Shown in pieces: positions 1,427-56,881 of a stretch of 64,000 nt of DNA. Location of the stretch: the sequence record NC_135728.1. The stretch is one strand, 5' to 3'. The notes under the pieces were generated by a model. It was not told where the DNA came from, did no database searches, and was given only the letters and a program-made list of their open reading frames with translations. Each line of letters begins with the position of its first letter. Within the stretch, counting starts at the first letter, position 1. A program made the translations under genes and the position numbers. The stretch is from a phage.

Positions 1427-2558
1427 AGAATATCCACTTATTGAATCTGTAGATTGTCTTGCTGATCTTCTCGAACCTGACGCTATAGTTTATTATGACT
1501 TCGACCAGGTTGCATATCAAGCTGCGGCAAGTTGTGAAAAAAGGACAATTGAGGTAACACACAAAGCCTCCGGACGTAAGAAGATGTTTAAAACACGAAC
1601 AGAGTTCTGGGGGCGGCAGAAAAACACCGTTGGTGGTTGGTTAAAAGCTGAGAATACCAACCGTGAAGCCGCATGTAAAAAGGCTGGAAAGGAGTTTATT
1701 CCGTGGACACGCGAAGATTTCGATGTCTTGGATATCCAAACCCCTGATCCTGTAGAGAACTGCTTACACACAATTAAGTGTAAAGCTAATGCAGTTCTTA
1801 ACTATCTTGGTATTCCGGAAGAGCGATGTGTCGGGGTGTTGGGAGGCACAGGTAACTTCAGACTAGATCTTCCAATGCCGGAAAGATACAAAGCCAACCG
1901 TAACAATACTCTTCGACCACTGCTGCTTGGAGATGCAAGACAGTATCTCCAAAAGCAGTATAATGCTCAAGTGATCAACGGTATCGAGGCTGACGACTGG
2001 TTAGCTATCCAGCAATTTGAAGGTTGGAACCACTACCAAAAAACAGGTAAGTTCAACAAGTTTATTATCTCTATTGATAAGGACCAAAGAACACTACCTG
2101 GACTTGTGTTCGATCCCATGCGAAACGATAAGGGAGATTTTGTAAGGGAAACCCCTATGCTGATCGATAACGGCATGGGAAACATCTTCATGAAGCCTAA
2201 TGGAGAGGTTGGTGGTTACGGAATGCTGTTCTTCGGATACCAAATGCTGTGTGGTGACTCTGCTGACAACATCAAGCCGTATCAAGGACTTATCGGTAAG
2301 GGTAAGTTCGGGGATGCCTCAGCATTCTACCTGCTGTCTCAGTGCAGCACTCCAAAGGAGATGTGGGTGGCTATTATTGATCAGTACAAGAAGTGGTTCC
2401 CGAAAGGTGTTGTTAAGTATACTGACTTCAATGGCATTGATCGTAGAATTTCCGTAGGTCAATGGATGAGTATAATTTTTGACTGTTTGTATATGAAGCG
2501 AACATTCAATGATCAAACAAAACTTGTTAACGTTCTTAGAAATGTTGGAGCAATTTGA
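1419..2558 (+). CDS. 5'-3' exonuclease / flap endonuclease (FEN family)
   Basis: Motifs YKANR, GIEADDWLA and H3TH-like GDSADNIKPYQGLIGKGKFG match the 5' nuclease family of Pol I N-domain/phage FEN. Confidence 0.65.
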   Translation: MSREYPLIESVDCLADLLEPDAIVYYDFDQVAYQAAASCEKRTIEVTHKASGRKKMFKTRTEFWGRQKNTVGGWLKAENTNREAACKKAGKEFIPWTREDFDVLDIQTPDPVENCLHTIKCKANAVLNYLGIPEERCVGVLGGTGNFRLDLPMPERYKANRNNTLRPLLLGDARQYLQKQYNAQVINGIEADDWLAIQQFEGWNHYQKTGKFNKFIISIDKDQRTLPGLVFDPMRNDKGDFVRETPMLIDNGMGNIFMKPNGEVGGYGMLFFGYQMLCGDSADNIKPYQGLIGKGKFGDASAFYLLSQCSTPKEMWVAIIDQYKKWFPKGVVKYTDFNGIDRRISVGQWMSIIFDCLYMKRTFNDQTKLVNVLRNVGAI

Positions 2559-2890
2559 TGACTAAAAATGCTGTAGATAATGCAATTATGGAAGCTGTTT
2601 TTGAGGATGATCATACAACAGGGACACTTAAAACAAAAAACACATTTATTGTTGCCACAGGTATGTGGCGGTTGTACGAAGATGACACTATTGCATACAT
2701 CTTGTATACTGATGATTACGCAGATGACCGTGTATGGTCTGCTGTTTTAAAAGAGGATTGTGAGCTGATTGAGGGCGAGCGGTTATGCATGTTCACCAGT
2801 GTGGAAACAGATGTTAAGCTTTGCTCTCTCGTCTTGTTCAAAGATAAGGCTTATGCTCCTGATGAAGGAGAGGAGGATGAGAGAGCATGA
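2555..2890 (+). CDS. hypothetical acidic protein
   Basis: 111-aa ORF, start overlaps upstream stop. Confidence 0.45.
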   Translation: MMTKNAVDNAIMEAVFEDDHTTGTLKTKNTFIVATGMWRLYEDDTIAYILYTDDYADDRVWSAVLKEDCELIEGERLCMFTSVETDVKLCSLVLFKDKAYAPDEGEEDERA

Positions 2891-3516
2891 GAGAGCGTCT
2901 ATTATCCATAGACCAGTCGTTGACACACACAGCTTGCGTTGTATGGGACGATGGAAAGCCTGTTCATAAGGTTGTGTTACGAACTCAAAGCTCATCTGCA
3001 AAAGAGAAGAAACCAGGGACGGTTTCTTTTGCAACAGCTGCTGAGCGCATTGACTGGATCTGCAAACAGGTCAGATATTATATCCACACGCACGGAGTTG
3101 ACACCGTGGTTATGGAAGGGCTTTCCTTTGGATCACGCGGTGATGCCACACGTGAGCTGGCTGGGCTGTTTTACGGTCTTGAAATTATGCTTTGGGATGC
3201 CTTAGCTGATTGTGAAAATGACGGCCTGTTTAAGGTCCACACAGTGACACCAACAACTGCCAAAAAGTTTGCTCGTAGTCATCTTCCTGAAGAACTTGCT
3301 TTTGAGGAGAAGAAAAAGCTTGACAAAAAGACAGGTAAAGAGCATACTGTGAAGAAACCTGTTACAATGGATAAAAAGTTGATGGTTAAGGCCTGCGAAG
3401 TATCTGAACCTGGGTTCCTAGATGGGATCAATTTGGTACAAGGTAAGGCCGATCTCGCAGATGCTTATTGGATAGGCAGGGCTCATCTGGAGGGATTATC
3501 GCAAAGCGTAAAATAA
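2887..3516 (+). CDS. hypothetical protein (possible RNase H-fold nuclease)
   Basis: 209-aa ORF; SIDQS...VVMEGLSFGSRGD loosely resembles RuvC-like acidic motif spacing; weak. Confidence 0.4.
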   Translation: MRERLLSIDQSLTHTACVVWDDGKPVHKVVLRTQSSSAKEKKPGTVSFATAAERIDWICKQVRYYIHTHGVDTVVMEGLSFGSRGDATRELAGLFYGLEIMLWDALADCENDGLFKVHTVTPTTAKKFARSHLPEELAFEEKKKLDKKTGKEHTVKKPVTMDKKLMVKACEVSEPGFLDGINLVQGKADLADAYWIGRAHLEGLSQSVK

Positions 3517-4073
3517 GAAAGAAAGCTGTCAAAGCCCCAGTTCATAACGGGTGGTTAAAAGATTCTAAGGACATAGCCAACTTTCGAAAAGAATTGTCAG
3601 AGGAGCAGGATGGTCTTGATCCGATCTTGTGCGAGCCACTTCGTAAGCCTTGTTTAGATCATGATCATCTGACTGGTCGTTGCAGGGGTGTTTTGTCTCA
3701 ATGCACTAATACCTTTGAGGGATATGTGCTTAAATACTGGATGAAATACTGTAACGAGTATACAGATTGCAGTTTATCAGAGGCGTTGCGCCGGATGGCT
3801 GACTATTTGGAGAAAGACTACAGCGACTTCCCGCTCCACAAAAACTACAGAGATGATATGACAAAGTTCTTGAGGAGATGCTCTAAAGCTACGATTATTG
3901 CACGAGCAGAATCAGATCTAAATCTTGTCATTAATCCGGAGTGCACCAAGCATGAGGCTATTGAGTTCTACATGCAGGAGTTTATAAAGAAAACTGAGGA
4001 GAGAGATTTCTATGGGGATGAAAAAGGTATTCAATCCTTGCGACTCAGTCCTGATCAGGATGAAATACCGTAA
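3468..4073 (+). CDS. endonuclease VII-like (HNH family) junction-resolving nuclease
   Basis: CLDHDHLTGRCRGVLSQCTNTFEG matches the T4 endonuclease VII signature (LDHDH..G..RG.LC..CN..EG); start uncertain, ORF overlaps upstream gene. Confidence 0.6.
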   Translation: MDRQGSSGGIIAKRKIRKKAVKAPVHNGWLKDSKDIANFRKELSEEQDGLDPILCEPLRKPCLDHDHLTGRCRGVLSQCTNTFEGYVLKYWMKYCNEYTDCSLSEALRRMADYLEKDYSDFPLHKNYRDDMTKFLRRCSKATIIARAESDLNLVINPECTKHEAIEFYMQEFIKKTEERDFYGDEKGIQSLRLSPDQDEIP

Positions 4074-4233
4074 CTGGAAAGGTGTTGTTGCAGATCGCTG
4101 CGTTACTGAGCCTAATTTATGGTTTGGATCTACAGAGTATCATAAAGAAGAGCAGTGGTTGATGCGTGCCTTCGATGTAGACAAGGGCGAATATCGTGAC
4201 TTCGCTTTAAAAGACATTCTTCAGTTTTACTAA
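4060..4233 (+). CDS. hypothetical small protein
   Basis: ORF track 4012..4233; an internal ATG overlapping the upstream stop is the likelier start. Confidence 0.3.
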   Translation: MKYRNWKGVVADRCVTEPNLWFGSTEYHKEEQWLMRAFDVDKGEYRDFALKDILQFY

Positions 4234-4245
4234 GGAATCTTAACG

Positions 4246-5229
4246 ATGATGACAAAGTTAACTCTTGAGCAAATTTTAACACTAAAGCAACAGGGATACA
4301 CTAATAGACAAATTGCTCGTGAATTTTTAGGCCGTGAGTCACGTGAGAGCTGGATCCGACTACAGCTTAAACGTGCACAAGAGAATATGTCAGAGATTGT
4401 AGGAGAAGCAACGGAGCGCTTCCTTGAAGAACACAAAGGTGCTAAAGTTTGGGTGTATGATACAGAGACATCCCCAACAAACGGCTGGTTCTTTGGGCAC
4501 TATAAGACCAACATTCAAACCTGTGGTATTGAAGTTATGCCCTATATGCTAACTTTCGCAGGTAAGTGGTTAGACAGCCCTAGTGTGGTTGACTGCGCTC
4601 TTCCAGATTACAAAATGTGGGATGAAGATATTCACAATGATCTCGAATTGATTCAGGATTTGTGGTATTATCTGGATAAATGCGATGTCGCAGTAGCCCA
4701 CAATTCAGGTTTTGACTGCGGGTGGGCCAACCAACGATTTGCATTTCACGGGTTGCCTCCAACAAGCCCCTACAAAGAGGTTGACACCCTTAAAATGATC
4801 AAGAAGGCATTCCGTTTGAATGCAAACACTTTGGAGTATGCATGCAAATACTTCCAACTGGCCAGACAGAAACTGATTGATCACACATTTGAAATGTGGA
4901 TCAAGTGTGTCCATGGCGATCTTGAGGCATTTAAACAGATGCGGGAGTATAATGTTGGTGATATCCTGTCTCTGGAAGGACTGTATTTGCTGGCTCGCCC
5001 GTTTGCTAAGCAGCACCCAAACATGTCATTGTACTACCAGGACGAGGAGCCAAAGGTTCGTTGCCCACGCTGTGGTGGAGAACACTTTCACGAGGAAGAA
5101 GCTTTGGCATATACTCAGCTGAGTGCATTTAAAACATACCGCTGCGAAGGTTGTGGATCTGTTGTTCGTGACCGTAACAACATCCGTACCAGAGAAGAAA
5201 TGAAAAACACCCTGATTCAGATAATCTAA
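4246..5229 (+). CDS. DEDD-family 3'-5' exonuclease with C-terminal zinc ribbon
   Basis: VYDTETS (Exo I), VAHNSGFD (Exo II), VGDILSLEGLY (Exo III-like), then CPRCGG...CEGCG. Confidence 0.5.
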   Translation: MMTKLTLEQILTLKQQGYTNRQIAREFLGRESRESWIRLQLKRAQENMSEIVGEATERFLEEHKGAKVWVYDTETSPTNGWFFGHYKTNIQTCGIEVMPYMLTFAGKWLDSPSVVDCALPDYKMWDEDIHNDLELIQDLWYYLDKCDVAVAHNSGFDCGWANQRFAFHGLPPTSPYKEVDTLKMIKKAFRLNANTLEYACKYFQLARQKLIDHTFEMWIKCVHGDLEAFKQMREYNVGDILSLEGLYLLARPFAKQHPNMSLYYQDEEPKVRCPRCGGEHFHEEEALAYTQLSAFKTYRCEGCGSVVRDRNNIRTREEMKNTLIQII

Positions 5230-22673: not shown

Positions 22674-23131
22674 CGATGTTTGTTAAATATGTAAAAACGT
22701 GCCTCAACAGTCTTGGCAGAGAGCATTGGTACACCTTACTTGAAAAAGGAGAAATTTTAACAAAATCTGGAAAGATAACTTTGATACCCTTGGACGATAA
22801 AGACCCGTCACTCCTTGTCATAGATGATTACGTTACAGGTGTGTCGTACGAGGTCTCTGTGGAGAGGTTAATACGCAGATCTGGAGGTCCTTATGACCGA
22901 AGAGAGTATGTTTTCGATTCTGTTACAGAGAAGGAAGATCCGTCTCTAATGTTCAGGATGGTAATCAGAGATATGAGGTCATCTATAGACAGGATCGTAA
23001 AGGACATTAAGGAGCCTTTTAGGGTAAAAGTTAAGAAGTTTTTTGATTCTAAGATTAACATACTTGCCGTTGTGCTAGGCGTAATTCAACTTCTGTTAAT
23101 TTTGCACTATCTTGAACTGTTGTTTAAGTAG
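22670..23131 (+). CDS. hypothetical protein with C-terminal TM segment
   Basis: 153-aa ORF coupled to upstream gene; hydrophobic C-terminus. Confidence 0.45.
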   Translation: MTMFVKYVKTCLNSLGREHWYTLLEKGEILTKSGKITLIPLDDKDPSLLVIDDYVTGVSYEVSVERLIRRSGGPYDRREYVFDSVTEKEDPSLMFRMVIRDMRSSIDRIVKDIKEPFRVKVKKFFDSKINILAVVLGVIQLLLILHYLELLFK

Positions 23132-23191
23132 TGTGCAATAAGGCACAAAGGATGTGCCATAACTAAATAAACTAAGAAAGAGGTAGAGAGA

Positions 23192-23539
23192 ATGCCAAAG
23201 ATTAAATCGATATTAATGTGGGTAGCTGTTGTGGCTTTTGTAGGATACTGGACTTGGGAAACTGAATTAAAAGATATCGGATATACCAGTCTTGAGAACA
23301 AGGCGTGCATTGGCATAACCGATGCATTCAGGCAAAATGCTATGGATCACGAATGTGTCGATGCAGACATAGATGAGAAACTGTCTAAGGACAAAGACTT
23401 CTACCACGGGTATGCTTTGCTTGATAGTGGAGACACTGTAGAGTTCTGGTCGTGGTTCCGTAAAGATGGAACAATAAAAACAGCAGTAAAGATCTCTAAC
23501 AAAGAGTTAATGCTGTTGCAGCAGAAGGAGGCTCAATGA
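23192..23539 (+). CDS. hypothetical protein with N-terminal TM segment
   Basis: 115 aa; RBS agaggtagag; preceded by palindrome GGCACAAAGGATGTGCC. Confidence 0.45.
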   Translation: MPKIKSILMWVAVVAFVGYWTWETELKDIGYTSLENKACIGITDAFRQNAMDHECVDADIDEKLSKDKDFYHGYALLDSGDTVEFWSWFRKDGTIKTAVKISNKELMLLQQKEAQ

Positions 23540-23823
23540 TCTGGATATCCTATGCTGATGGCACCATGCTGTATACTGCAGGTACCAGATATGAGGTTCA
23601 GGAGAACGATAAAAAATTTATCGTAAGAACATTTGACAAGGACGACAACCTTTTGCTAGAATTAACTTACAAGGTTGGGGATGTATCTAGCATCCAGTTG
23701 GATTGCGGTCATAAAGATAACCCACTCAAGAAACCTGGGGTAGGTAAAGCTTCAGAAAAACGCCTGTCTCGTATTGCAGAAAGCGTTTCTGCACAAAAAT
23801 CTAAGAAGGGGACTAGAAAATGA
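23536..23823 (+). CDS. hypothetical protein
   Basis: 95-aa ORF, coupled. Confidence 0.4.
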   Translation: MIWISYADGTMLYTAGTRYEVQENDKKFIVRTFDKDDNLLLELTYKVGDVSSIQLDCGHKDNPLKKPGVGKASEKRLSRIAESVSAQKSKKGTRK

Positions 23824-47696: not shown

Positions 47697-48254
47697 TCAA
47701 CACTCTTTGTATTCCACCACGATAATATCTATATCAAAAGTGGCAAGGTTAATAACGTCCTCTACATGCTCCCACTTCAAACCGCCTATGCCGCACCCGA
47801 TTTTGGGGATGTAGAATGGTAAAGTCGATCCACTGAATACCTCATTGACCAGCTCAAAGCCTTTCAGGATTGAGAAATATTCAGCATTAGGCCCTGGGTA
47901 GAACTGAGTATACAGATTGATTCCGTAGACAATACCTCTCGGAGATGAGTGCTCCCATCGGGAGAACGCACCCAGTTTACTTAGGCAACCGTGTCTGGTC
48001 TCTTTGTCGGCTGACAATGCTTGAGGAAACTCACGGGCAATCTGTTTTGCTATGCCCTTACCCATCGTGTGGAAGCAGTTACAACCGTGGATCAGGTGAC
48101 CAGCACCGCTCTTAAAAAGGGAGATTAAATCTCCCTCTACAGTATCAATAATCACGGTATGCCAGCTCCTCTTCCGCAATTTCAAAAAACTCATCCCAAC
48201 CTTGTGGCATATTTGAGTTGCCGAAGTGGCTTTCATAGTAAAGGTTCTCACCAC
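47697..48254 (-). CDS. macro domain (ADP-ribose binding/hydrolase-like) protein
   Basis: VIIDTVEGDLISLFKSGAGHLIHGCNCFHTMGKGIAKQI matches the macro-domain N-terminal signature; true start probably internal because ORF overlaps upstream gene. Confidence 0.55.
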   Translation of the reverse strand: MVRTFTMKATSATQICHKVGMSFLKLRKRSWHTVIIDTVEGDLISLFKSGAGHLIHGCNCFHTMGKGIAKQIAREFPQALSADKETRHGCLSKLGAFSRWEHSSPRGIVYGINLYTQFYPGPNAEYFSILKGFELVNEVFSGSTLPFYIPKIGCGIGGLKWEHVEDVINLATFDIDIIVVEYKEC

Positions 48255-48836: not shown

Positions 48837-48931
48837 GGGCAGTGGCCTCCTGTTAGTTATACATCCCAGTTTTCTTCGTTCATCACGTCCTCCAGTCTAT
48901 GAAGTTATAATTGCACACCTTTCAACCTGTG

Positions 48932-49348
48932 TCAACAGAAAACTTCAACAAACTCTTCCACAGTTTTAATGTCGTGGGAAAAAGGTTTACGGCTATAACG
49001 GGCAATAGCACTATCAACCACCGCCCGGTACTCCAAATCTTCAGAATATTTCATGAAGCATTGCAGTGTTTCTGGACAGATAGCTAGATAGCTCCACCAC
49101 CCTTCATCAGATTGATAGTCAAAGCCCATGCTCTCCAACCATGAAGCATATACTCCAGCACCCTCAAGCCAGTGGGTATTTTCATCCAGAAACTTGTTAA
49201 CAGACATGTGAGCTTCTAAGCACTTGTCCAGCTCTTTTCCGTTAACCAGCCACGCACTGACTGTGGCACATCCAAGGTCTACAGATTGAGTTGACAGGTT
49301 GTATTGGTCATAGTTCTCAGGTTTAACAATGATATCTTCTAATGTCAT
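48932..49348 (-). CDS. hypothetical acidic protein
   Basis: 138-aa ORF. Confidence 0.45.
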   Translation of the reverse strand: MTLEDIIVKPENYDQYNLSTQSVDLGCATVSAWLVNGKELDKCLEAHMSVNKFLDENTHWLEGAGVYASWLESMGFDYQSDEGWWSYLAICPETLQCFMKYSEDLEYRAVVDSAIARYSRKPFSHDIKTVEEFVEVFC

Positions 49349-49410
49349 TTTTCAGATCTCCTTATACAAAAATGCCCCACCCTTTCGGGCAGGGCTATGT
49401 TAACTAGATG

Positions 49411-50637
49411 TTAGAAGGGGATGTCATCATCAAAGGCGTACTGTGCTGGATTCTGATCCATCGGGTCGTCTTCCCCATCATTTACAGGAGGAGCGTCTAC
49501 AGTGTTTTGCTGTGGAGCTGCTTCCTGTTTGGCAGCCTGAGGTTCTTGATGGTCAGTTGACCCAGCACCGTTCTTGATCCAATCGTACAACGGCTCAGCC
49601 AGATTAGTCAACACATCTTTTGCTTCTGCAGTAATTGCCGCTGCAAAATCATCAACTTTCGTTTTCTTGTCAATACGGCGACAAGCGTTCAACACCGCAT
49701 TACCGACACTGGCACCTACTTCATCTTCAGTTCGGTTGGTGGCTTGAGCATACTCTTTCTTAAGCTCAATGGTGACTACGTGCAGTGCTTTAGCCACACC
49801 TAGTGGGTCGTCTACCTTAAACCCGCGATCCAGGATGATTTGCAACGCATTGATGCTATGCCCAGTCTCCACACCAATAGGGTCGTAAGAGGATTTACGC
49901 TTGCCACCAGAGCCTTGAGTGCCGTTCTCTGCCTTAGGTGGGTAGGCTTTGAAACCACTGATAATGTTTCCGGTGTCTTTGTCAACAATGGCTGCAACAC
50001 GACCACCTACCACCAGGTCTTTAAGCTGCTCATCAGTGACAACCATAGCACCTTCGCCAATCTTGTGGTCATTAACAGTAACCACGTTGCCAACAATCTG
50101 AGCCACATCGCCATAGATGCGTAAAACGTCCTGATTGGCATTCTGCTGAGGTTTCTGCTTCTGACCTTGTGATTGTGCACCTTGTTGCTGTTTTTGCTGC
50201 TGAGTCGCTGCTGGAGCCTCTCCTGCACCCAGCTTAACCATCTTAGCCAGTGAGCCTTTGTAGTAGGTCTTACCGTTATGCTCGTTTGCCTTCAAAGGAA
50301 TATTTACGATCCATCCTGTCGTTACGGTTTCCCACTTGTCATCAATCTTAACAGAGACAGAGTCTTGATGACCCGGTTTAAGCAGCTTATCACCCATGCT
50401 GATCCAGACTTCTTCACCACCTTGAAGCAGGTTATCAGAGGAATCCAGTTCAGAAATCAGTAAAGAGATGGTGTGGCTGGACTCAATTTTCTTACCTTGC
50501 CACACGGTGGTTTTAATACCTGTTGCAGGATCAGCCCCTTTAATAGGTTTGATGCTAACACGTTTGATCATACCGTGAGCCAGTAAAACAGTTTCACGCG
50601 GATTCATCGGGTTAGCAAATTGTTGAATAACGCTCAT
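49411..50637 (-). CDS. ssb: single-stranded DNA-binding protein-like (DDDIPF tail)
   Basis: C-terminus ends AQYAFDDDIPF, the acidic SSB tail; preceded by Q/P-rich low-complexity linker; 408 aa. Confidence 0.6.
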   Translation of the reverse strand: MSVIQQFANPMNPRETVLLAHGMIKRVSIKPIKGADPATGIKTTVWQGKKIESSHTISLLISELDSSDNLLQGGEEVWISMGDKLLKPGHQDSVSVKIDDKWETVTTGWIVNIPLKANEHNGKTYYKGSLAKMVKLGAGEAPAATQQQKQQQGAQSQGQKQKPQQNANQDVLRIYGDVAQIVGNVVTVNDHKIGEGAMVVTDEQLKDLVVGGRVAAIVDKDTGNIISGFKAYPPKAENGTQGSGGKRKSSYDPIGVETGHSINALQIILDRGFKVDDPLGVAKALHVVTIELKKEYAQATNRTEDEVGASVGNAVLNACRRIDKKTKVDDFAAAITAEAKDVLTNLAEPLYDWIKNGAGSTDHQEPQAAKQEAAPQQNTVDAPPVNDGEDDPMDQNPAQYAFDDDIPF

Positions 50638-53497: not shown

Positions 53498-53868
53498 TGA
53501 TCGGTCTCCTTCTTGTTAAGTCTGAATACTGCAATAATAGTATTCCCAAGGTGCAGTGTCAAGTCATTTCCAAGGTACCACAGCATCCCACGGTCATCTT
53601 TAATGAAAGGGTAACAATCTGGTGCCTTCCAGACATTGTACACTTTCCCAACCTGAAAGAAATCAGGCCCTGTTGGTATTTTGGTGCCAGGCCACACTTG
53701 AGATACCTGAACACACTCCACCTGCATAATAACAGGAATGGTCATGGATGTAAATGTTTTTGTTGGCTCTACTACCATAAAAGTCTCCTCTTTGCTCAAC
53801 AGCACCTCCCTGTGCTGATAGTTTACATTAGTGACAATCCCCCCAGTTACGACCACACAAGTATTCAC
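53494..53868 (-). CDS. hypothetical protein
   Basis: 124-aa ORF; its 5' end overlaps polymerase exon 2 so the true start may be internal. Confidence 0.35.
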   Translation of the reverse strand: MNTCVVVTGGIVTNVNYQHREVLLSKEETFMVVEPTKTFTSMTIPVIMQVECVQVSQVWPGTKIPTGPDFFQVGKVYNVWKAPDCYPFIKDDRGMLWYLGNDLTLHLGNTIIAVFRLNKKETDQ

Positions 53869-54181
53869 CTGTGATCTGGAACGGGACTCCCATCATTTTA
53901 GAAGCTTGCCAGAAGCAATGCACCACCATTTCACCCACAGGGCTCCAGATAAGTTCAAGCTTTCCGTCATCGTTCAGGATAGGATCGTACACCGTGTTTC
54001 CGTCTCTGTCAACCACTTCGTTTCCGTCCTCATCCTTGCGTGCCTTTTTGTACTTATGACCGTCGAACACATGAAGTTTGGCTTCCTGCTCTGCCTTAAA
54101 TGCCTCCAGTTGCTCAATTGTGTCGAAGGTGTACACAGTCTTATACTTAGGCGTGTCAGGCACTTGAAGTTGGTACTCATC
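53828..54181 (-). CDS. DNA polymerase (family A), exon 2
   Basis: Begins DEYQLQV, completing motif C (YHDE) when joined to exon 1; C-terminus VPFQITGEYLCGRNWGDCH parallels Pol I C-terminus VPLLVEVGSGENWDQAH. Confidence 0.7.
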   Translation of the reverse strand, partial: DEYQLQVPDTPKYKTVYTFDTIEQLEAFKAEQEAKLHVFDGHKYKKARKDEDGNEVVDRDGNTVYDPILNDDGKLELIWSPVGEMVVHCFWQASKMMGVPFQITGEYLCGRNWGDCH

Positions 54182-54457
54182 CAATAGTTCAGGTAGGTCG
54201 TTAAGCTACCCCGCACCATTACGTGCATAGCCATACGTTTTCACGTAGGATCGGACCATCTCATATTCCTATGATAAGCAACCACAGGAATCCTCCCATT
54301 TCGACCGCACTTGCTGGTCTACTTCCTTTCGGAATGGCCTCTGAGCGTTCGCTCTTTTGAGCGCTTCGTTGCGGATTACCTTGCCATAAGGTTTAGGCTT
54401 CCCGCAGTTAAAGAGGTTATTCGACATAGATTACTCTATGAAGCCACAATGTTATTT
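54182..54457 (-). other. group I self-splicing intron in DNA polymerase gene
   Basis: 5' exon ends in U with U-G pair to guide sequence GUGG; intron ends in G; P10 pairing CAUU with exon-2 GAUG; core elements P AACUGCGGGAAG, Q AAUCCGCAAC, R CUCAGAGGCC, S GAGAUGGUCC in canonical order. Confidence 0.75.
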
Positions 54458-56881
54458 ATGGTAATAAATAATACGACGAACACCTTCATCGTACCACCCA
54501 CGCTTCACCATTTGGTGGTGCATGAGTATCCCAACTAAGTCACACAGCGATGCACCACCATTTTGTTGGTATGCATTAAGTAAAGAGTGTTTAGATCTGG
54601 TCCAGATAGCATGACCATCGAAAGAGTAGATAAACTTCTTACCTGTTGCTTCCCAGAATTTCTCCAGATCCTCTTTGCGCCCCTTAAGACCGGGGTTGGC
54701 ATCCCAAAGTGCATCTATTACCCTTTGCCCCAACTCTGGAGAGATGTCCAACATATCTGCAACTTTATCTTTTTGTGCCCCGTACATAACACCATACGTG
54801 ATAGGTTTACCGTCGTTACGGGACACCTCTCTGCCTGCTACTTTTGTATATGCCTCGGCATTGTTTTGGTGTGCGTCTCCGTTACTTACAACATCATAAT
54901 ACAGGCCGTTGTCGAACTCAAAGGCACCCCAAGCCCCGATAAGCTGCTCTAAGTTGGACCCGTCAATACCGATCTGAAAGTATCCGGGAGGAACACCCCA
55001 TAGACTACGCATCTCTTTACCCATAACCACTTTAGGAGATGGTTTAGGCATGTTTGCACAAATACTGTGTTTCTGTCTGGAAGTGTTTGTTAGCCCAGAA
55101 CTTTTAGCAGGAAGCTTATGGTCAATCTTCAAACGTGGGTGATTAAGAAGACCAGTATCAACCTTATCCTCCTTGATTGGGTCAAGGACCGATCTGCGGT
55201 TTCGCAATGATAACCACAAGACGATATCTTTAGCCATCTCTCCGTTCAATTTTTCAAGATTCGGACACAGGTGTCCAAACGTATCTTTCAGTTGCGGAGA
55301 AGTAATAAGTGCCCTGGCTTTTCTACGTATTTTCCCGAACACTTCCTTTTTAATCCTTTCGGAGTTAGGAAAGCTTCGGAACTTGTGCACGGTTGTCTGG
55401 AACTTAGCATCAGTTTTGTTCCAGAAGTTGATAATTAGGTCACAATACTCTGACTCTAAAAGCTCGTCCATATAAGCATATACTCGTGCATCAACATCTG
55501 CATCAGGTAGAGCTTTCTTCTTGCTGTCTTTAGTTACATCCTTAGTTCTCCACATTGTCGGGAGCCAGCCAGCGCTGATCAGATACCGCTTAATGTCGTC
55601 CTGATTGCTGATTTTCATAGGTATCTTGCAGTCCGGCATTCGCTTCTGCTGTAGATCACTTATTGCCTGATCCATCAGCTCTTTAGGCAAAGGGTGTGGT
55701 GTGGAAGTTCCCTTAATATAGCCTCTCAAGAAATCAGCCATCTTATCGGGGTCTTTGCAGCCCATCTCTTCACACCATTTTATCCCCATCTTGCTGACAT
55801 CCCCTGTAGAGGTAAATGCTCTCTTAGGCGGGGCTTTGAACTCTAAAGCGCTCATGTCTACAGGATAGCCAAGCTTATCTTTTAACCATTTCCAACCATT
55901 ATTAGAGATTGTCCCGTCTTGGTTAAACGGCTTTTCAGGGAACTTGGGCCGCTGAGACATTGACAGCTCTTTTAAAGGCAGTTGTGGTTCAACACGATCA
56001 GCTATTTCTTTCATCCACGCATCGCAACGGTCACGTAAAGCAATAGCTCCATCTATGTCGAAGTATACACCCTGACGGGCCTGCAGCTCCATCAGGAAGT
56101 GCTGCAGCATGCCTCGACGTAATGCGTTCTTCCAGGTGATCTTCTTGAACCCTTTCGGCTTCTCTTTGGCAGGATCGTACATAAAGTTCTGCATGTCAGA
56201 TTTGCCGTAGAATACACCTTTTGATTCCGCTACCAGCTCTTTCCAGAGCAGCTCCTGGATGATAACGTCCTCGAATACACGATCCACATACTTCCACAAC
56301 GGGAGATCGCGCCAGTCATCAATTTGAACTTTCTGGTTACCAAGGGCGTAGCCCCATGCCATAAGACCGTGAGGTCCAACAGGCTGCATTTTCTTAGTAA
56401 CCGGGTTAAATACTGAGTCTGGACAACCTTTTGGCAAAGGTCGGTCAGGCCACAAAATTCGGCTCATAGCCAATGTATCAAACAGATTAACCTGGTGGTC
56501 GTTGATAGTCCCCATACACTTAGGATCACGGAACATATCAAAATGAATACCGGACAATCTCTCCATCAGCATAAAGTCGTAGCTGTAGCAGTTGTGGCAG
56601 TTCAAAGCTGTGGGTGACCAGTCAGAATTGCCTGTAAGCCAACCTTCCAACTCTGAAAAATCTGCTATGCGAACTTCAAAATCTTTATAAAGAGTTTTCT
56701 TTGCCAGAATAAAGTTCTTAGCCTTCTCTATATCCTCTTCAGAGTAGTGTGTGCGGTCATTTAGAGGAAGGAACAGCATAAAACGGTTCTTATTCAGCTC
56801 TTTAAACAAGCCGCAGTGATAATAAAGATCTAGGTCTTCTAGTAAACCAGAGGCCTCCAGGTCGAAAGACCACATACTCAT
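54458..56881 (-). CDS. DNA polymerase (family A), exon 1
   Basis: 3'-5' exo motif FDLEASGL; polymerase motif A-like QIGIDGSNLEQ; motif B KPITYGVMYGA; ORF stops one codon after YYH, just before the expected HDE. Confidence 0.8.

Follow-up and report, generated by a model that had tools for sequence, protein, structure and literature searches.

The window, a stretch of 64,000 nucleotides from record NC_135728.1, comes from a virulent, rV5-like E. coli myovirus, a Vequintavirus. Across the 3 kb that surround the macro gene treated here, identity is 99% with Escherichia phages phiWec193/196 and 90-96% with over 100 further vequintaviruses. Sixteen records under the name 'Campylobacter phage' (host C. 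jejuni; e.g. MG065644, MG065690) also match the macro region, the eight listed at 95-99.6% identity, which points to a host label in error or to contamination by a coliphage. The leftward-transcribed arm carries, in order, rIIB, a helicase, methyltransferases, an AAA ATPase, the DNA polymerase and then a long run of small ORFs of unassigned function that includes the macro gene. The sequence-only reading had placed the gene next to the replication module, which holds only loosely; exon 2 of the polymerase ends at 53831, ~5.7 kb and ~17 small ORFs away, so that the two are not truly adjacent. Pfam and PHROG searches of the ten ORFs flanking the macro gene gave no informative assignment except one zinc-binding domain. 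The polymerase gene (53831-56881, minus strand) is itself split by a group I intron at ~54182-54457 (Rfam RF00028, 64.7 bits, E 4e-14, at 54232-54467), exon 1 (56881-54458) and exon 2 (54181-53831) corresponding to residues 1-808 and 809-925 of the uninterrupted JES2013 polymerase at 98-99% identity. This intron was the sole match of the Rfam scan, which showed no RNA element near the macro gene, and scans for tRNAs and tandem repeats were negative.

The gene had previously been given as 47697-48254. An ORF is present there (the maximal ORF of the listing, minus strand, 185 aa from a GTG), and in its translation GHLIHGCNCFHTMGKGIAKQI at 48039-48101 is an exact match to the signature G.L..GCNC...MG.GIA.QI, but the start had been set 99 nt too far upstream. 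The macro gene proper is most likely 47697-48155 on the minus strand, i.e. 152 aa and a TGA stop, read from a GTG at 48155. This start is favored by the overlap with the upstream gene and the GAGGAG site (Table 1), by the starts of the RB49 and T4 Tk.4 homologs, by homolog length and by the RefSeq model: the RB49 and T4 proteins begin at a position that aligns with GTG 48155 (MIID.../MIVK...) and have in-frame stops immediately upstream, the homologs are ~150 aa long, and the 459-nt version of the gene is the annotation in RefSeq NC_022323 and in phage BP9. Read in the macro frame, 48156-48254 shows radical substitutions between relatives, and the in-frame upstream ATG of one GenBank annotation is not conserved in rV5_ev147. 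The 185-aa ORF and a 179-aa GenBank model were both dropped in favor of the 152-aa GTG start, on the grounds of the ATG lost in rV5_ev147, the ribosome binding site and the homolog starts.

The stop of orf141 overlaps the macro start by 11 nt, and the two genes are therefore likely to share a transcript and to be translationally coupled. A short transcription unit of orf65, orf141 and the macro gene is suggested by one terminator-like hairpin and by sigma-70-like promoter matches, all of them consensus matches only. The transcription unit upstream of this one contains a gene (49411-50637, minus strand) for a conserved 408-aa protein (phrog_4477) with a Gln-rich low-complexity center and no Pfam match. 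Between the homologs of this ORF and of a 138-aa ORF, phages JES2013, ECML-10, HeinrichReichert and others carry a ~640-bp insertion with an endonuclease VII or homing endonuclease; comparison with the JES2013 locus (22917-23540) shows the insertion to be absent at window positions 49349-49410, where the window has a terminator-like hairpin (49374-49395).

Table 1. Position of the macro gene, its predicted functional motifs and its expression signals in the window
Feature	Position	Strand	Remarks
Macro-domain gene	47697..48155	-	Stand-alone macrodomain, Tk.4/AdfM/Adpp family (phrog_335); profiles, AlphaFold2 model, dN/dS
P117-K-I-G-C-G-I-G-G125	47781..47807	-	Second glycine-rich (diphosphate-binding) loop by alignment; Gly opposite TARG1 Asp125
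N80-L-Y-T-Q84	47904..47918	-	Q84 at the position of the catalytic Lys of DarG (K80) and TARG1 (K84), equivalent to SCO6735 Gln85
M31-G-K-G-I-A36	48048..48065	-	First ADP-ribose-binding glycine loop (macrodomain GxG motif) by alignment
H23-G-C-N26-C27	48075..48089	-	N26 equivalent to SCO6735 N27 and the DarG catalytic-site Asn; H23 to SCO6735 H24 and Poa1p H23
Upstream gene (orf141), 141 aa	48145..48570	-	phrog_8157, unknown function; stop overlaps macro start
5' extension of 185-aa ORF	48156..48254	-	Inside the upstream gene; most likely untranslated in the macro frame
Shine-Dalgarno sequence GAGGAG	48166..48171	-	10 nt upstream of the GTG; direct sequence reading
Sigma-70-like promoter match	48907..48935	-	TTGACA-17-AATTAT with TG; consensus match only; possible promoter of orf65, orf141 and the macro gene

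Profiles, fold and residue conservation establish beyond reasonable doubt that the product is a macrodomain. The Pfam Macro profile PF01661 matches it at E 2.2e-6, with 28 bits against a gathering cut-off of 22, and phrog_335 matches at E 1.9e-59 to 3.8e-59; DarG is its best match both in the PADLOC defence library (E 5.5e-14) and in NCBIfam (E 1.4e-12, macro part only). The AlphaFold2 model, built with 42 homologs as input, has a mean pLDDT of 96.4 and a pTM of 0.90, and shows as its predicted fold the three-layer alpha/beta arrangement with two glycine-rich ADP-ribose-binding loops, MGKGIA and IGCGIGG, that are invariant or nearly so. The macro-domain call of the sequence-only reading is thus borne out by the exact signature, by the Pfam score above cut-off, by phrog_335, by the fold and by the conserved residues. 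The top Foldseek matches in the PDB are TARG1, which ranks first, Poa1p, the DarG macrodomains and SCO6735, all at probability 1.0, with TM values of 0.71-0.77 for the TARG1/Poa1p neighbors; the best 18 all belong to the ALC1-like/TARG1-Poa1p-DarG class, and the coronavirus and alphavirus macrodomains rank later. A profile-to-PDB search retrieves essentially this class alone, with E 1e-9 to 1e-15 for DarG, SCO6735, TARG1, BT1257 and Poa1p and a weaker E 2e-4 for TTHA0132. The protein is in this ALC1-like/TARG1-Poa1p-DarG class, and not in the MacroD, PARG or viral Mac1 classes. DarG proper was ruled out, since the NCBIfam DarG equivalog NF048014 gives 47.6 bits against a cut-off of 250, the match covering profile positions 3-143 of 338 in a protein of 152 aa, the C-terminal DarT-binding domain is absent, and the catalytic Lys is replaced by Gln.

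Alignment of the active site points to a particular type of macrodomain. In the 42-sequence family alignment G24, N26, C27, M31, G34, A36, D50, N80, Y82, Q84, P117, I119, G120 and G125 are invariant, and the Gln84 position, which was checked in 235 family sequences, is Gln in every full-length member. By the profile and multiple alignments the macro protein lacks the Lys84/Asp125 dyad of TARG1, the aligned residues being Q84 and G124. Its H23, N26, Q84 and G120-G125 loop align with H24, N27, Q85 and the G126/G128 loop of SCO6735 from Streptomyces coelicolor, and an equivalent of SCO6735 K89 is absent. SCO6735 frees thymidine in DNA of ADP-ribose, an activity for which Gln85 is essential, and it rescues cells from DarT; its His, Asn and loop-Gly residues matter by mutagenesis, and it also hydrolyses protein-linked ADP-ribose (PMC9411070). 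Loss of catalytic residues, which had been named beforehand as grounds against a functional macro domain, is found in part: the canonical Lys of DarG and TARG1 is gone, yet in its place stands an invariant Gln that is functional in SCO6735 and present in T4 Tk.4 and in the Adpp protein of Vibrio phage Gary. Since this Gln is essential in SCO6735 and invariant in the family, the missing Lys appears not to signify loss of function but to mark a Gln-type subfamily. By this alignment Q84 and N26 are the residues to mutate.

The macro gene is under purifying selection, with dN/dS of 0.10-0.12 against four relatives. Natural loss-of-function alleles nevertheless occur in some relatives (P0017, P0040 and P0055, contigs of 32-135 kb). 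In one 135.5-kb relative a deletion at a QFY microhomology fuses the upstream ORF (...LLIQFY) with the C-terminal part of the macro protein (QFYPGPN...); two other relatives have a frameshifted gene. These deleted or frameshifted copies imply that the gene is dispensable in nature, as expected for a conditionally useful accessory counter-defence gene.

Among phage proteins, sequence comparison makes the macro protein a member of the Tk.4/AdfM/Adpp family with its SCO6735-like Gln active site. T4 Tk.4 (AdfM, NP_049723) is 39% identical over its full length (residues 1-150 against 1-152, E 2e-40), and RB49 Tk.4, whose gene occupies the vs-tk locus as in T4, is 68% identical, a value that across phage families suggests horizontal exchange. 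The family comprises 1,153 clusters at 50% identity for E <= 1e-30 and 8,436 for E <= 1e-10, and tblastn finds homologs in at least 2,777 of 50,697 deposited phage genomes. Close Gln-type members also exist as macro-NADAR, macro-NADAR-DUF4326 and DUF4326-macro fusions (P0202, P0139, P0223 and P0185); the contigs of the macro-NADAR and DUF4326-macro fusions, which are virus-like and short or ORFan-rich, showed no DarT nearby. Such NADAR and DUF4326 fusions are as compatible with a role on small ADP-ribose derivatives as with DNA de-ADP-ribosylation (PMC9503650). A search of the window with a small, low-sensitivity NADAR HMM found no NADAR partner of the kind (AdfN) known in the Bas60-62 vequintaviruses.

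Two different counter-defence activities, both with the unusual Gln active site, were attributed to members of this family in 2025-2026. In a DarTG2 challenge of a T4 transposon library, tk.4 was the single significant (depleted) gene; a clean T4 tk.4 knockout is DarTG2-sensitive and the gene was named adfM, on evidence that is genetic and in preprint form (bioRxiv 10.1101/2025.11.20.689424). Adpp of Vibrio phage Gary (KNV71_gp137), which is 35-37% identical to the macro protein and has in common with it HxCNC, MGxG, N-x-Y-x-Q and IGCGxxG, converts ADPR-1''-phosphate to ADPR as a purified protein and is required for NARP1-AP to overcome aRES (bioRxiv 10.64898/2026.01.28.702374). The suggestions of the sequence-only reading, that a phage macro domain could counter defences that ADP-ribosylate DNA or proteins or could process NAD-derived signals, thus each have a homolog with experimental support, the former in T4 Tk.4 and the latter in Gary Adpp. 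In the unrelated phages Gary (1629-4659) and Acinetobacter phage Aci01-1 (904-4474) the macro homolog lies inside or beside the NARP1 genes, which encode the PRPS-like Adps and the NAMPT-like Namat, and RNA ligase genes are close by.

Of these activities the macro protein most probably has the former, i.e. it would be made early and, as an accessory enzyme, undo DarT2-type ADP-ribosylation of phage DNA, a reading to which a probability of roughly 0.55 may be given. The gene would be transcribed together with its small upstream neighbors from host-type promoters, within a small accessory-gene block downstream of the replication genes. From homology, the protein would bind the ADP-ribose moiety via the glycine loops MGKGIA and PKIGCGIGG and would hydrolyse the bond at ribose C1'', with N26 and Q84 positioning substrate and water as proposed for SCO6735 and without a Lys/Asp dyad. 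The likeliest substrate would be ADP-ribose on thymine of single-stranded phage DNA, placed there by DarT2 of DarTG2 systems, and its removal would let replication go on, as for T4 Tk.4 (AdfM). Because the DarG-type C-terminal DarT-binding domain is lacking, the protein would be expected to act on the product of DarT and not by sequestration of the toxin.

The preference for this anti-DarT2 role derives from the absence of NARP1 genes in the lineage together with a weakly supported tree grouping with Tk.4. The Adps and Namat proteins of Gary and Aci01-1, used as tblastn queries at E <= 0.01, gave no match in either the window or the complete JES2013 genome, and this removes the context of the known phosphatase role. 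T4 likewise has no NARP1 pair and yet has the DarTG2 phenotype, so that genomic context appears to discriminate somewhat. Pairwise identity does not, as T4 Tk.4 (39%), Gary Adpp (37%) and the Aci01-1 member (39%) stand nearly equally close to the macro protein and the active-site residues of Tk.4 and Adpp are equal, which counts against the DarT2 role. Also against it, the neighbor-joining tree places the window/RB49 clade with the T4 Tk.4 group at only 69/100 bootstraps with respect to Gary Adpp and 53/100 with respect to the other NARP1-linked member; the two NARP1-linked macrodomains, Gary and Aci01-1, are not sister lineages in this tree. The predicted pI of 5.8 is mildly acidic, unlike the basic DNA-acting macrodomains of SCO6735 and M. 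tuberculosis DarG, but the DNA-acting PhiKZ AdfM is acidic too, and overall charge is therefore no indicator of DNA binding.

The main rival, though an unlikely one, is an Adpp/Poa1p-type phosphatase that would act on a small molecule, converting ADPR-1''-phosphate to ADPR. Its substrate would be supplied by NAD+ phosphorylase defences of the RES type (aRES), or else would derive from the ADPr>P of a predicted Sir2-based RNA-repair module of the phage. Besides the family membership, common motifs and demonstrated biochemistry of Adpp, this rival draws on Poa1p, which is among the top structural matches and whose H23 and S30 align with H23 and T30 of the macro protein, and on the scattered placement of NARP1-associated macrodomains in the tree, which suggests that phosphatase activity is widespread in the family. 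As to the endogenous source, Vequintavirus relatives encode a cluster (in JES2013 at 65.9-67.9 kb, ~2.5 kb before the window start) of a T4-like RNA ligase, cREC, Sir2 (PF02146, E 7e-28) and MazG; Iyer et al. 2022 (PMC9503650) predict that such a cluster is an NAD+-consuming RNA-repair module that releases ADPr>P, which would be a possible substrate for a Poa1p-like macrodomain. This chemistry is itself a prediction, however, the macro gene is unlinked to the Sir2 cluster (~50 kb off in JES2013), and sirtuins of this type are not coupled to a Macro gene (PMC9503650). With neither Adps nor Namat encoded, dephosphorylation of ADPR-1''-phosphate would furthermore not rebuild NAD+, and T4, despite its likewise lacking NARP1, shows the DarTG2 phenotype through Tk.4. 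Adpp also has a 7-residue insertion after the Gln that is absent from the window, RB49 and T4 proteins. The length of this loop was tried as a discrete marker of AdfM and Adpp and dropped, as it varies continuously across the family.

A tentative and improbable alternative to any such division of labor is that Gln-type phage macrodomains are generalist hydrolases of C1''-linked ADP-ribose, in which one active site serves two counter-defence routes. The Vequintavirus enzyme may then both strip DarT2 thymine adducts and dephosphorylate ADPR-1''-phosphate, whether from a RES-type source or from the Sir2/RNA-ligase module. The scattered NARP1-linked members in the tree and the identical catalytic residues allow such breadth, and if it exists AdfM and Adpp are two names for one promiscuous family and not two specialised lineages.

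It is distinctly improbable that the protein acts like TARG1/OARD1, in de-ADP-ribosylation of proteins or RNA or in deacetylation of O-acetyl-ADP-ribose, with another host defence or sirtuin by-products as its target. TARG1 is the top structural match, SCO6735 does accept protein-linked ADP-ribose, JES2013 encodes a Sir2-family protein and some GenBank records use the name O-acetyl-ADP-ribose deacetylase. These database names are automatic transfers and not tests, however, the Lys84/Asp125 dyad that serves Glu/Asp-linked protein substrates is replaced by Q84 and G124, and the Tk.4/AdfM/Adpp family includes no homolog with a demonstrated protein or RNA target. An annotation check also found no ADP-ribosyltransferase anywhere in JES2013, and a phage enzyme as the counterpart of the macrodomain was rejected on this basis. 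Most improbable of all is a non-catalytic action, by sequestration of an ADP-ribose-derived immune signal or by direct binding and inhibition of DarT: the SCO6735 mutant Q85A, although catalytically inactive, retains in vitro inhibition of DarT (PMC9411070), one fusion relative gives a weak ThsA_Macro match and phage sponges for NAD-derived signals are known, but the SCO6735-type hydrolysis residues are all invariant across hundreds of clusters, and the macro protein has neither a ThsA_Macro match nor the DarT-binding C-terminal domain of DarG.

Several GenBank records already name the Vequintavirus gene, variously as macro domain protein, phosphatase or O-acetyl-ADP-ribose deacetylase, and none of the papers searched tests or discusses its product. 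The counter-defence functions of the family were themselves published in 2025-2026, and the gene therefore adds a member to an already described family and not a new kind of system. What is gained here is the corrected gene model and the singling out of Q84 and N26. Sequence alone does not so far tell an AdfM role from an Adpp role; the macro protein is nonetheless a real anti-defence candidate, and its remaining value is as a test case of whether the Gln-type phage macrodomains are specialised or promiscuous. Vequintaviruses are broad-host-range phage-therapy candidates, and a probable anti-DarTG2 enzyme or ADPR-1''-phosphate phosphatase encoded by them helps to predict which host defences they evade.

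Of the known cellular macrodomains, SCO6735 (PDB 5E3B) resembles the macro protein in active-site type, as it is ALC1-like and has Gln for the catalytic Lys. It is only 23-27% identical to the macro protein, however, and is a bacterial protein with a basic pI of 9.7 and a longer mobile loop that carries K89; its K34 has an equivalent, K33, in the macro protein that is not conserved across the phage family. The DarG2 macrodomains of T. aquaticus and M. tuberculosis, and gp104 of PhiKZ, share with the macro protein the fold class, the conserved Asn and both glycine loops, but have a catalytic Lys (DarG K80, PhiKZ gp104 K78) where the macro protein has Gln, and DarG has in addition its DarT-binding C-terminal domain. 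PhiKZ gp104, the chimallivirus AdfM, also belongs to phrog_335 although its identity to the macro protein is only 21-26%. Human TARG1/OARD1, distinguished by its K84/D125 dyad, and yeast Poa1p, whose N-terminal third is almost in register with the macro protein (H23, C25, N26 and C27 aligned), are eukaryotic cellular proteins with a different biology.

Within the phage family, Gary Adpp is Poa1p-like and equal to the macro protein in its active-site residues, the Gln included, but its gene sits between Adps and Namat in one operon, both of which this Vequintavirus lineage lacks. The T4 and RB49 Tk.4 proteins share more of the general organization: they are stand-alone proteins of 151-155 aa in PHROG 335 with an equal start position, and have the motifs HGCNCFHTMG, NLYTQFxPGPNxEY and IGxGIG in common with the macro protein. 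Like T4 tk.4, the Vequintavirus gene is a non-essential accessory gene in a large virulent E. coli myovirus. The genes differ in locus, the T4 and RB49 genes lying between vs and tk and the Vequintavirus gene among small unknown ORFs downstream of the replication genes, and in that the DarTG2 phenotype is demonstrated for T4 tk.4 only.
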